Shown: positions 33,503 through 35,607 of the stretch, piece after piece | Layout of the letters: each line of letters begins with the position of its first letter | Numbering within the stretch: position 1 is the stretch's first letter | Origin: Nitrospiria bacterium | GTDB lineage: Bacteria; Nitrospirota; UBA9217 | DNA length: 64,000 nucleotides | Assembly: GCA_919902495.1 (NCBI GenBank) | Contig: CAKKRC010000012.1 | Location: 71,865-135,864, forward strand | Direction: 5' to 3' | The notes under the pieces: model-generated | The model's database searches: none | What the model was told of the DNA's origin: nothing | Seen by the model: only the letters and a program-made list of their open reading frames with translations | Position numbers and translations under genes: made by a program

Positions 33503-33781
33503 ATGTTGAAAAAGAAGGTCAACGATGCGAGTGCGGGCGCTTCACCGGCCGTGGACATGGGATGCTGCGCGGTCGAGGCGATCGTGACGGTCGATGAGCG
33601 GGGACAGATGGTGCTCCCCAAGGAACTGCGCGCAAAGGCCGGCATCAAGGCCGGCGACAAGATGGCGGTCGCCATGTGGAAGAAGGACGGCGAGGTATGC
33701 TGCATCACGCTCATCAAGGCCGGCAGCCTCGGCGGCATGATGCGGACCCTGCTCGGGCCCGTGATGAAGGACCTTTTGTAG
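33503..33781 (+). CDS. AbrB/SpoVT-like swapped-hairpin small protein with two CC dipeptides (HgcAB-associated candidate)
   Basis: VTVDERGQMVLPKELRAKAGIKAGDKMAV; GCC and VCC motifs; directly upstream of hgcA. Confidence 0.55.
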   Translation: MLKKKVNDASAGASPAVDMGCCAVEAIVTVDERGQMVLPKELRAKAGIKAGDKMAVAMWKKDGEVCCITLIKAGSLGGMMRTLLGPVMKDLL

Positions 33782-33940
33782 CTACTAAGGACACAAATCT
33801 GAGTAAACAGCATTTTGCCACAGAGTACACCGAGCACACAGAGAACTGCCATGATCAGAAATGTTCAGCTTTCCTCGGTGTCCTCAGTGACCTCGGTGGC
33901 GAAAAGAATTTATGCTCTTGTTCATAAGGAGTGATTACCA

Positions 33941-35128
33941 ATGCAAAAGCTCAAGTTCGTAACAAAGGAACAGCGGGACAGCGGCAGCTCCTGCTGCGGT
34001 CCGGAGCAAGGCGCCGGCGCGGCCAGTTCCCGCGATGCGGCCAGGAGCATTCTTTCCTGTCCAACGACGAACCGGAACGCACCCCGCTGGACCACCGGAA
34101 CGGTCCCGACGCCGTCAGGAGCGGTCCCGCAGATATCGACGGTATGGACGCGCAGCGACTACTGGGGGATGCTGAAAAGCAGGTCCGGCGGCTATCGCAT
34201 GCGATATACCGTGGCTCCCGGGCTATATGCCGTGGGAGCGCCGGACAGGGATTCGGACGTTCTCGTGACCGCCAACTACAAGCTAAGCTTCGACATCGTG
34301 CGGCGGGCGCTAACGGGGTTCAATGCCTGGGTCCTCGTGCTCGACACGAAAAGCATCAATGTCTGGTGCGCCGCGGGAAAAGGGACCTTTAGCACCGACG
34401 AGCTGGCGAAGCGCATGACCGAAGCGAGACTCGATGCGGTCGTCAGCCACCGGCGCGTCATCGTCCCGCAACTCGGCGCTGTCGGGGTGAACGCGGCGGA
34501 GATCGTGAAGAGAACGGGCTTCCGGGTCTCCTTCGGACCGGTCGAGGCCCGGGACATCCCGGAGTACATTCGCGCCGGATATAAGAAGACAAAAGCAATG
34601 AGCGCGATGAAGTTCACCATGCTCGACCGGCTGGTCCTAACCCCGATGGAGATAAATCCGGCCATGAAAAAATTCCCCTGGGTGGCCGCGGGCATCCTCC
34701 TGATCTTCGGTCTCCAGCCTTCGGGCCTTCTGTTCAAAGAGGCATGGTCCAACGGCCTGCCGTTTCAGTTGCTGGGCCTGCTGTCCGTTCTCACCGGAGC
34801 GCTGGTGACGCCGGTGCTGCTGCCTTTTATCCCGTTCCGCTCCTTTGCGGTGAAGGGCTGGATCACGGGCGTGCTGTCGGTGTTCATCGCCACACGCTAT
34901 CTCGGGCTATCGGGTGTACAGGACCCGATCCTGCTCGCCGTCGCCTATCTGCTCTTCCCGGCCCTGAGCTCCTACATCGCGCTCCAGTTCACGGGCTCAA
35001 CGACCTTTACCGGCATGTCAGGCGTGAAAAAAGAGCTTAAGATCGGCATCCCGCTGTATATCGGGGCAGCAAGCGTATCATTGATCCTGATGGTAGTTTT
35101 CAAGCTCAGGGAATGGAGTGTGATATGA
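33941..35128 (+). CDS. hgcA: mercury methylation corrinoid protein HgcA
   Basis: cap-helix signature NVWCAAGKGTF; N-terminal CFeSP-like corrinoid domain and C-terminal multi-TM domain. Confidence 0.85.
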   Translation: MQKLKFVTKEQRDSGSSCCGPEQGAGAASSRDAARSILSCPTTNRNAPRWTTGTVPTPSGAVPQISTVWTRSDYWGMLKSRSGGYRMRYTVAPGLYAVGAPDRDSDVLVTANYKLSFDIVRRALTGFNAWVLVLDTKSINVWCAAGKGTFSTDELAKRMTEARLDAVVSHRRVIVPQLGAVGVNAAEIVKRTGFRVSFGPVEARDIPEYIRAGYKKTKAMSAMKFTMLDRLVLTPMEINPAMKKFPWVAAGILLIFGLQPSGLLFKEAWSNGLPFQLLGLLSVLTGALVTPVLLPFIPFRSFAVKGWITGVLSVFIATRYLGLSGVQDPILLAVAYLLFPALSSYIALQFTGSTTFTGMSGVKKELKIGIPLYIGAASVSLILMVVFKLREWSVI

Positions 35129-35607
35129 AGTATCTTGCAAACGTAACGACTCTTGAGTACTCCCCGAATAAATGCACCGGCTGCGGACGGTGCGCAGAGG
35201 TCTGCCCGCGCGGCGTATTTGAGCTTGTGGAAGGAAACAGCACCCTCGCCCCTGCCCGACACATAAACGACCCTCACCCCTTCCCTAATGAAGACTCACC
35301 CTCACCTTTGCTTCCTCTCCCCTCTGAGGGAGAGGATAAGAGGAGAGGGGGCGTCATCTTCGGAGAGGGACAAAGGGAGAGGGGGCTTTATCCTCGGGAG
35401 GGAATAAGGAAGGGGGGTGTTCGTCGCGCAGCGGTCACGGACAAGGACCTGTGCATGGAGTGCGGGGCCTGCGCCCTGAACTGCGAGTTCGGCGCGATCG
35501 CCGTCAACACCGGCGTGGGATGCGCCGCAGCCTTGATCAACGGCATGATCACCGGCGGGGCGCCTTCCTGCGGCTGCGACAGCACGCCGGGCAGCGTCTG
35601 CTGCTGA
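35113..35607 (+). CDS. hgcB: mercury methylation ferredoxin HgcB carrying an in-frame repeat-element insertion
   Basis: CTGCGRCAEVCP and CMECGACALNCEFG 4Fe-4S motifs, C-terminal ...SVCC; two clusters separated by about 65 extra residues (SPSPLLPLPSEGEDKRRGGVIFGEGQRERG) from hairpin element. Confidence 0.75.
   Translation: MECDMKYLANVTTLEYSPNKCTGCGRCAEVCPRGVFELVEGNSTLAPARHINDPHPFPNEDSPSPLLPLPSEGEDKRRGGVIFGEGQRERGLYPREGIRKGGVRRAAVTDKDLCMECGACALNCEFGAIAVNTGVGCAAALINGMITGGAPSCGCDSTPGSVCC
35262..35425. repeat. GC-rich hairpin element copy E2, inside hgcB reading frame
   Basis: cctctcccctctgagggagaggataagaggagagggggcgtcatcttcggagaggg; near-identical to 55381-55480. Confidence 0.8.

Follow-up and report, generated by a model that had tools for sequence, protein, structure and literature searches.

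Does a 64-kb stretch of DNA from an uncultured Nitrospirota bacterium (hereafter the window) equip its owner to make methylmercury, and how might such a capacity be controlled? The question is raised by three plus-strand genes at 33503-35607—hgcC, hgcA, and hgcB—the first a small AbrB-like gene and the last interrupted by a palindromic repeat. In HgcAB chemistry, reduction of the corrinoid to Co(I) is the task of HgcB, and Hg(II) receives its CH3 group from the methyl-corrinoid carried by HgcA. Our answer, to which we give a probability of roughly 0.7, is that 33425-35607 is an hgcCAB operon in which HgcC acts as a DNA-binding autoregulator and the repeat-bearing HgcB is most likely functional. 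The core of this finding, hgcAB with an AbrB-like gene upstream, is already known in kind, because NCBI names the identical HgcA and HgcC and an AbrB/PrlF-like gene in this position was published in 2023. What we add is modest: a candidate operator at which the role of HgcC can be tested, and an hgcB gene that probably works despite the repeat interrupting it. The genes had been pointed out in an earlier note made from the sequence alone, and the open reading frames (ORFs) and other features that it described all lie where it placed them (plus-strand ORFs at 33503-33781, 33941-35128, and 35113-35607, encoding 92, 395, and 164 amino acids, respectively). The three genes are as follows:

33503-33781, plus strand: hgcC, 92 amino acids, AbrB/SpoVT-type, with a ribosome-binding site (GGAGGA) at 33493-33498
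33941-35128, plus strand: hgcA, corrinoid protein with an N-terminal extension, a corrinoid domain, and a membrane domain (approximately nucleotides 34679-35110)
35125-35607, plus strand: hgcB, dicluster ferredoxin of 160 amino acids, assigned by NF040864 and its Cys motifs

The first step is the identity of these proteins, all of which exceed the cut-offs of curated NCBIfam equivalog models and whose matches are therefore not due to chance. The 395-residue protein scores 386.4 bits against the HgcA model NF040863 (cut-off 275) and remains under the cut-off (188.9 bits versus 285) of the model for HgcAB-like fusions, which form a non-methylating family. Its cap helix reads NVWCAAGKGTF (residues 140-150, nucleotides 34358-34390), the motif that the earlier note had singled out as diagnostic; it fits N(V/I)WCA(A/G)GK and places the Co-ligating residue at Cys143. 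The corrinoid-binding domain is recognized by PF03599 (CdhD, 46 bits, residues 90-208), and the relatives in the PDB are large subunits of the corrinoid iron–sulfur protein (4djd_C and 2h9a_A), matched over their C-terminal corrinoid domain with E values of ~1e-9. Hydropathy analysis places four to five hydrophobic stretches in the region from residue 247 to 390 (19-mer peaks at approximately residues 247-265, 277-299, 325-348, and 368-390), which bears out the C-terminal multi-transmembrane domain that had been proposed. These features support the identification of the protein as HgcA, a membrane-anchored corrinoid methyl carrier with a cap-helix Cys. NCBI holds an identical protein from a Nitrospirota metagenome-assembled genome (MAG) under MEK6742414.1, named “mercury methylation corrinoid protein HgcA,” and the closest species-level relatives are Nitrospirota MAGs with at most 69% identity. 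The protein is extended at its N terminus (residues 1-60, 33941-34120) by a segment that opens with a conserved M-x-(E/K)-L-K-F sequence and has two adjacent cysteines at residues 18-19. A CC in this segment is found in about half of 81 HgcA homologues regardless of hgcC (10/20 with the gene versus 29/61 without it), and we rejected a link between the two.

To judge by all homologues, hgcB almost certainly starts at the ATG at 35125 (MKYL...), giving a protein of 160 rather than 164 residues. This start overlaps the hgcA stop by the 4 nucleotides ATGA (35125-35128), and hgcB is, judging by this overlap, translationally coupled to hgcA. HgcB scores 104 bits against NF040864 (cut-off 99), so that both halves of the check by hgcAB profiles that the earlier note had proposed come out in its favor. 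The match to the profile falls into two parts on either side of a 63-residue insert, whereas the core from which the insert has been deleted scores 109 bits in a single stretch. The window protein is thus not a compact HgcB of ~95 residues with a contiguous profile match: it has 160 residues versus the usual ~97 (a gene of 483 versus 294 nucleotides in close relatives), an excess that the earlier note had passed over. However, the residues that define the family are in place. The CX2CX2CX3C cluster motifs (C17-C20-C23-C27 and C110-C113-C116-C120) are invariant in the alignment, as are Cys133 (in GVGCAAA), the equivalent of Cys73 in ND132, and the C159-C160 pair in the C-terminal ...GSVCC; further cysteines lie at positions 149 and 151. 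The downstream 2x[4Fe-4S] ferredoxin ending in a Cys pair, as it had been described, is therefore what we find. Both cluster motifs, the Cys73-type residue, and the terminal Cys pair are named as important for function by Cooper et al. (2020, PMC7305189). Equivalog model and defining Cys features together support the identification of the 160-residue protein as HgcB, although the identical NCBI entry (MEK6742415.1) is labelled only “4Fe-4S binding protein.”

Pseudodesulfovibrio mercurii ND132 is among the confirmed methylators in which hgcAB was reportedly described by Parks and colleagues in 2013, and it offers a useful comparison. As in ND132, the window encodes a cap-helix Cys corrinoid domain followed by a C-terminal membrane domain and, directly downstream, a dicluster ferredoxin with the Cys73 equivalent and the C-terminal Cys pair; a structural model of HgcAB is available (Cooper et al. 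2020, PMC7305189). There are three main differences. A loop of 63 codons derived from the repeat lengthens the window HgcB to 160 residues rather than ~95, HgcA is extended N-terminally by 60 residues that include the CC pair, and the gene upstream of hgcA is hgcC, not arsR. This Nitrospirota lineage is a likely mercury methylator, as expected for the phylum, and its potential for methylmercury production hinges on whether the repeat-interrupted HgcB still works, as it probably does.

What, then, is the small protein encoded upstream? HgcC consists of a Lys-rich tail, Cys21-Cys22, a swapped-hairpin-type domain, Cys66-Cys67, and a conserved C-terminal helix, and so has the two CC dipeptides ascribed to it in the earlier note. 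Its AbrB-like nature is likewise confirmed by TIGR01439 (40.6 bits, cut-off 28.3) and PF04014 (32.2 bits, cut-off 24.7), and the best model is NF040962 (“HgcAB-associated protein HgcC”), with 112.4 bits over residues 21-90 (cut-off 70). A 100% identical protein in NCBI is named “HgcAB-associated protein [Nitrospirota bacterium]”; the name HgcC was not found in the literature searched. Profile matches to solved AbrB-family proteins comprise 5itj, 2l66, 2ro5, and 1z0r, the nearest being the DNA-binding regulators 5itj and 2l66, and an AlphaFold monomer with a predicted local distance difference test (pLDDT) score of 54 has an order of secondary structures compatible with a swapped-hairpin β-barrel dimer. 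We searched 1.8 billion cluster representatives with the profile, which outlined a compact family with 319 matches at E ≤ 1e-10, and measured conservation in the best 150 of these, which represent 50%-identity clusters. All 150 have R43, and D31, G34, Q35, L38, P39, K40, G51, and K53 are each found in >90%. The cysteines are less constant (C67 in 89%, C66 in 78%, C22 in 76%, and C21 in 59%), so that only the second CC is widely conserved, and L84, G85, and P86 are conserved in the helix that follows the AbrB-type domain. In a comparison set of 80 species-representative hgcA loci, hgcC immediately precedes hgcA in the same orientation in 19, mostly from Nitrospirota. The hgcC-hgcA gap is 159 nucleotides in the window versus 6-17 in many relatives.

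An AbrB/PrlF/MazE-like gene directly upstream of hgcA has been reported as a putative regulator in 14 contigs and in eight of 31 confirmed methylators, mostly archaeal and mainly Methanomicrobia (Zhang et al. 2023, PMC10349881). That study framed the gene as toxin-antitoxin-related, and the words “cysteine,” “operator,” and “promoter” are absent from it. The window hgcC belongs to the same family and has the same position and orientation, but it differs from those cases in its Nitrospirota host, in the lack of a toxin, and in a conserved CTGAT/ATCAG promoter. Could HgcC nevertheless be a type II antitoxin of the PrlF/MazE type, orphan or active, next to hgcA by accident? A Pfam MazE_antitoxin match, the name “antitoxin PrlF” given to many homologues by the Joint Genome Institute (JGI), and the discussion by Zhang et al. 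(PMC10349881) all point that way. Yet the neighbors of hgcC are a divergent DUF4388/SH3 gene upstream and hgcA downstream, with no adjacent toxin gene, the protein scores 112 bits against NF040962 whereas the top antitoxin model reaches 17 bits, and the pairing with hgcA recurs in 19/80 species, all of which makes an antitoxin very improbable.

Further evidence on HgcC function comes from the DNA in front of its gene, where two features can be recognized:

33425-33453, plus strand: putative sigma-70-type promoter of hgcC, with the -35 element TTGACA at 33425-33430, a 17-nucleotide spacer, and a weak -10 element TAAATA at 33448-33453
33444-33477, plus strand: operator-like boxes, of which box 1 (CTGAT, 33444-33448) abuts the -10 element and boxes 2 and 3 lie in a palindrome at 33458-33477

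The palindrome is perfect over 20 bp (TTATCTGATATATCAGATAA). Both features are shared: TTGACA followed after 17-18 nucleotides by a TAnnAT-like hexamer occurs at the same position upstream of hgcC in 16/18 aligned loci, and across the 18 loci one box abuts the -10 element and one or two lie just downstream. At least two CTGAT/ATCAG boxes within 80 nucleotides are present in 17/18 hgcC upstream regions and at least three in 8/18, against a background of 2.3% and 0.3%, respectively, in 21,434 windows. Among hgcA loci without hgcC, 2/61 reach three boxes in any 60-nucleotide upstream window, and both cases look like chance. The architecture of promoter and boxes is thus specific to hgcC-bearing loci, in which it is kept down to an HgcC identity of ~55%. 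Within the 64-kb window, the hgcC cluster is the sole intergenic one. A second cluster of CTGAT boxes, at ~10008, was dismissed as chance because it falls inside the ORF at 9403-10659, which we take to be ftsZ.

We therefore favor a role for HgcC as an autoregulator that binds the CTGAT/ATCAG boxes, because these boxes sit at hgcC promoters, the most constant residues are those of the AbrB fold, the solved relatives bind DNA, and no toxin is adjacent. As an AbrB-type dimer or tetramer, HgcC would bind two or three boxes over the -10 element and the transcription start of its own promoter. The position of the gene is in keeping with such a role, since in P. mercurii ND132 an ArsR-like regulator is co-transcribed with hgcAB (Gionfriddo et al., bioRxiv 10.1101/2022.10.17.512643) and hgcC, like that arsR, is a small gene placed first in the hgcAB unit, the typical spot of autoregulated metal(loid)-responsive repressors. 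The parallel does not extend to structure, as ArsR is a winged-helix protein whereas the predicted swapped-hairpin fold of HgcC is unrelated, and the window locus has no ArsR. We also considered whether the “regulator slot” is filled by other regulators when hgcC is absent and discarded the idea, the upstream ORFs being heterogeneous and often spurious.

Vicinal cysteines are typical of Hg-handling proteins, and this gives weight to another role for HgcC, that of a metallochaperone or accessory subunit, whose cysteines would exchange Hg(II)/CH3Hg+ with the HgcB Cys pair or whose C-terminal helix would dock on HgcAB. C66 and C67 are found in 78-89% of clusters, the C-terminal helix with L84, G85, and P86 is conserved, the NCBI name says merely “HgcAB-associated,” and Cooper et al. 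(PMC7305189) note that it is not known from where HgcB Cys94/95 obtain their Hg(II). We nonetheless consider a chaperone in place of a transcription factor unlikely. Conservation in HgcC is strongest not at the cysteines but at basic and turn positions of the AbrB-type fold that binds DNA, hgcC genes are accompanied by the box motif in their own promoters, and hgcC comes first in the operon as does the autoregulator arsR upstream of hgcAB in P. mercurii. Of the earlier suggestion that the protein is a regulator or a chaperone, the first half has thus been strengthened by the boxes at hgcC promoters and the invariant AbrB-fold residues, while the second is the less probable. The two roles are not mutually exclusive. 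Control of hgcAB expression is an open question in mercury biogeochemistry, and the architecture of promoter and boxes makes the role of HgcC cheaply testable.

Our reading of HgcC as an autoregulator also includes a signal. The frequent but not universal C22, C66, and C67 would modulate DNA binding upon a thiophilic signal, which could be Hg(II), As(III), or redox. In a bolder version, HgcC would be an AbrB-fold thiol sensor that represses hgcCAB through the boxes until Hg(II), As(III), or an oxidant engages Cys22/Cys66/Cys67; separately, nucleotide-level selection could maintain the hgcB repeat. We regard this combination as possible but doubtful. To our knowledge, no metal sensor built on the AbrB-type swapped-hairpin fold has been described so far. 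If true, HgcC would be the first example, ArsR aside, of regulation that ties the expression of hgcAB directly to a thiophilic signal.

The second part of our reading, that HgcB most likely works in spite of its insert, concerns the following feature:

35236-35424, plus strand: nested palindromic repeat in hgcB, 189 nucleotides (63 codons), in frame, with three hairpin layers of ~63 nucleotides each

The innermost layer spans approximately 35288-35362. The insert occupies a single position between the first and second cluster motifs of HgcB, and hgcB alleles carry 0, 63, 126, or 189 extra nucleotides (0, 21, 42, or 63 codons) at this one site, with gene lengths of 294 nucleotides in L082 (97 residues, no insert), 357 in L083, 420 in L085, and 483 in the window. 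As RNA, the insert folds into one long hairpin (-94.2 kcal/mol, z = -2.85). Only one of the six frames of the element is free of stops, and it is the one used in hgcB. In an AlphaFold model of low confidence (pLDDT 51), the insert has no secondary structure (pLDDT <50) and is flanked by strands 32-37 and 99-104. In our reading, the 63 extra codons are three nested ~63-nucleotide units of a hairpin repeat found genome-wide, inserted at the tip of the β-hairpin joining the cluster-binding halves of HgcB; with a unit length that is a multiple of three and one open frame, the insert is presumably translated as a disordered loop rich in Pro, Gly, Glu, and Arg. The flanking HgcB core is under purifying selection, with a ratio of nonsynonymous to synonymous substitution rates (dN/dS) of 0.12-0.18 at dS 0.3-0.5 between insert-bearing alleles, and selection therefore continued after insertion. 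The insert is carried by ~20 of the 120 best HgcB clusters (90%-identity clusters), and its 21-residue form is found across HgcB cores only 71-90% identical. By contrast, 76/76 hgcB genes in the 80 species-representative loci are uninterrupted, and the insert is therefore confined to a sub-clade. No mention of an interrupted hgcB was found in a limited look at the literature.

Two other explanations of the long gene have to be weighed. The repeat may have inactivated hgcB, in which case the locus would be decaying and the organism would not methylate mercury. In favor of decay are a profile match that is split in two and lies just 5 bits over the cut-off, the reluctance of the NCBI pipeline to name the protein HgcB, the 76/76 uninterrupted genes, and the very stable hairpin of the insert. 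Against it, the frame is intact and uses the sole stop-free frame of six, all eight cluster cysteines are kept together with the Cys73 equivalent and the terminal CC, the dN/dS values given above come from comparisons between insert-bearing alleles, some 20 of 120 clusters share the insert, and in the AlphaFold model the insertion falls at a hairpin tip between pseudo-symmetric halves. We thus judge decay quite improbable. Alternatively, the long gene might be an assembly artefact, a repeat collapsed into hgcB. Short-read contigs do break within the insert, the repeat marks the end of the Logan contig L001, and there are several cluster members truncated at 64 residues. However, the long form recurs in independent assemblies (L093, L086, and P0246). 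L093, an independent JGI contig from a different species-level relative with an HgcA 85.6% identical to that of the window, has the same 483-nucleotide architecture, as does L086, and intermediate alleles occur in other samples, which makes an artefact extremely improbable. The repeat-interrupted HgcB most likely remains functional, judging by its preserved sequence features.

Several observations weigh against the combined reading of an autoregulated hgcCAB operon with a working HgcB. The -10 element in the window is weak, with 3/6 consensus positions, and was missed by a generic promoter consensus scan. The promoters compared are homologous, and shared ancestry could account for part of the conservation of the boxes. 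As many as 61/80 relatives have no hgcC, and 10-40% of HgcC family clusters are without one or more of the cysteines; thiol sensing is therefore not a universal HgcC mechanism. The structure models of HgcB and HgcC are both of low confidence (pLDDT 51 and 54, respectively). Finally, an mRNA hairpin of -94 kcal/mol and a 63-residue loop beside cluster B could impair HgcB.

As to how the allele series arose, nested insertion and internal loss are both possible, and we favor neither. A stepwise vertical history found no support, because the core dS values do not follow the length of the insert and L082 has a mosaic structure. Compared with the window, L082 is 95% identical over the 3' part of hgcB and the downstream spacer (35437-35812) and 84% identical over hgcA and the 5' part of hgcB, a pattern that suggests recombination with a breakpoint near the insert site. 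Short-read contigs with this hgcA (L001, from Logan ERR3858120, and P0242-P0247) stop inside the repeat and leave HgcB fragments of 62-64 residues, and such breaks likely explain “hgcA without hgcB” calls in this clade. Together with the downgrading of HgcB by NCBI, they imply that surveys demanding paired hgcA and hgcB may undercount the clade. The series of alleles with 0, 21, 42, and 63 extra residues is also a natural test of the tolerance of the HgcB inter-cluster hairpin.

The repeat is not peculiar to hgcB. The family is multi-copy and hairpin-forming, and it occupies four sites in the 64-kb window, those outside hgcB being the following:

55386-55472, plus strand: second in-frame copy, with 90% identity to the one in hgcB, within the linker between the domains of a transketolase-like ORF (54427-56478)
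21049-21145, minus strand: intergenic copy (blastn 83.5% over 97 nucleotides) between ORFs ending at 20920 and starting at 21211/21482
37582-37758, minus strand: intergenic cluster downstream of a radical-SAM gene (blastn 79% over 81-122 nucleotides, in several pieces), between a stop at 37501 and a start at 37946

The transketolase copy is read in the same open frame as the hgcB copy (DSPSP...IFGEG), and it falls where the Pfam domains, which stop at residue 270 and resume at 359, leave a linker that is shorter and variable in relatives. The exact 30-nucleotide core of the repeat was found at 23 metagenome loci, only two of which are convincingly genic, so that the family is mostly intergenic; a third genic insertion (in L106) was rejected, as the ORF that spans it looks spurious. 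By eye, no obvious target-site duplication distinguishes filled from empty hgcB sites, and no transposase was identified, without a systematic search for one. The element resembles Rickettsia palindromic elements and intragenic MITE/REP-like repeats (miniature inverted-repeat transposable elements and repetitive extragenic palindromic sequences; PMC10969869) in being short, multi-copy, hairpin-forming, and non-autonomous, and, like the Rickettsia elements, it is found in frame in unrelated genes, with one open frame and at structurally tolerant sites. It differs from them in being mostly intergenic (2/23 loci genic), in its nested 63-nucleotide layers, and in its free-living Nitrospirota host.

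Comparing the window with the species-level relative represented by L093/L094, we found that repeat copies (55386-55472 and 35288-35424) have diverged less between the species than the genes that host them, which differ by 10-13%. In hgcB, 249/288 nucleotides of the core are identical versus 75/75 in the innermost insert layer and 53/54 in the right insert arms; the left insert arms (55/63) diverge at the rate of the host gene. The transketolase repeat copy is identical at 87/87 nucleotides in a host gene that shows 90% identity overall. Homogenization within the genome was rejected as the cause, since copies within the window differ by ~10% and yet orthologous ones match exactly from species to species. 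The conservation could stem from selection at the nucleotide level, from recent re-insertion targeted at hairpins already in place, or from short recombination tracts, and we make no choice among these. The transketolase-like ORF is itself unusual in that its N- and C-terminal halves are fused, most homologues being separate subunits of ~335 residues. Its relatives in the clade are also fused, with a variable linker to which the repeat adds ~30 residues, and NCBI calls the C-terminal half as a separate gene of 342 residues.

A second repeat family lies within the operon itself:

33813-33904, plus strand: imperfect hairpin repeat of ~90 nucleotides in the 159-nucleotide hgcC-hgcA spacer (RNA fold -44.2 kcal/mol, z = -2.4)

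An 80% copy is present at 53880-53990 on the minus strand, and because hgcC-hgcA gaps in relatives are only 6-17 nucleotides, this hairpin is an insertion into the operon spacer. Counting this one, hgcA and hgcB are flanked by at least two short repeat families other than that in hgcB (33813-33904 and 35608-35986), with copies at 53880-53990, 54178-54243, and 56609-56652; those after hgcB (35608-35986) are direct or dispersed. At Rfam gathering thresholds, the spacers of the locus matched no riboswitch and no other known RNA, and relaxing to E ≤ 1 gave only chance microRNA-like hairpins.

The neighboring radical-SAM, DUF4388/SH3, SPFH, and TOTE genes have no match in the 80 species loci, and the flanks are thus not conserved. 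Upstream lies a transfer-messenger RNA (tmRNA) gene (27514-27863); after it come a PIN-domain gene (28192-28656) and a gene for the archaeo-eukaryotic primase (AEP)-helicase of a TOTE conflict system (29015-31414), and the G+C content dips at 28-30 kb. That hgcCAB belongs to an island integrated at the tmRNA was rejected, no repeat of the tmRNA 3' end having been found downstream. On the other side, 380 nucleotides downstream of hgcB, lies a B12-binding radical-SAM gene (35987-37501) with weak PhpK/HpnJ-like matches, shared just with the closest metagenome relatives L093 and L086; a link between its product and the corrinoid protein is possible but unsupported. Beyond it, a segment of ~8.8 kb with low G+C content (37503-46280, 41-51%) encodes SPFH, PIN-like, SEC-C-motif, and zeta-toxin-like proteins. 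The segment is missing from the syntenic L093, in which hrpB directly follows the radical-SAM gene, and at its end the promoter and 5' end of hrpB are duplicated with 87% identity (44800-45234 versus 46180 onward); the segment is probably an integrated island.

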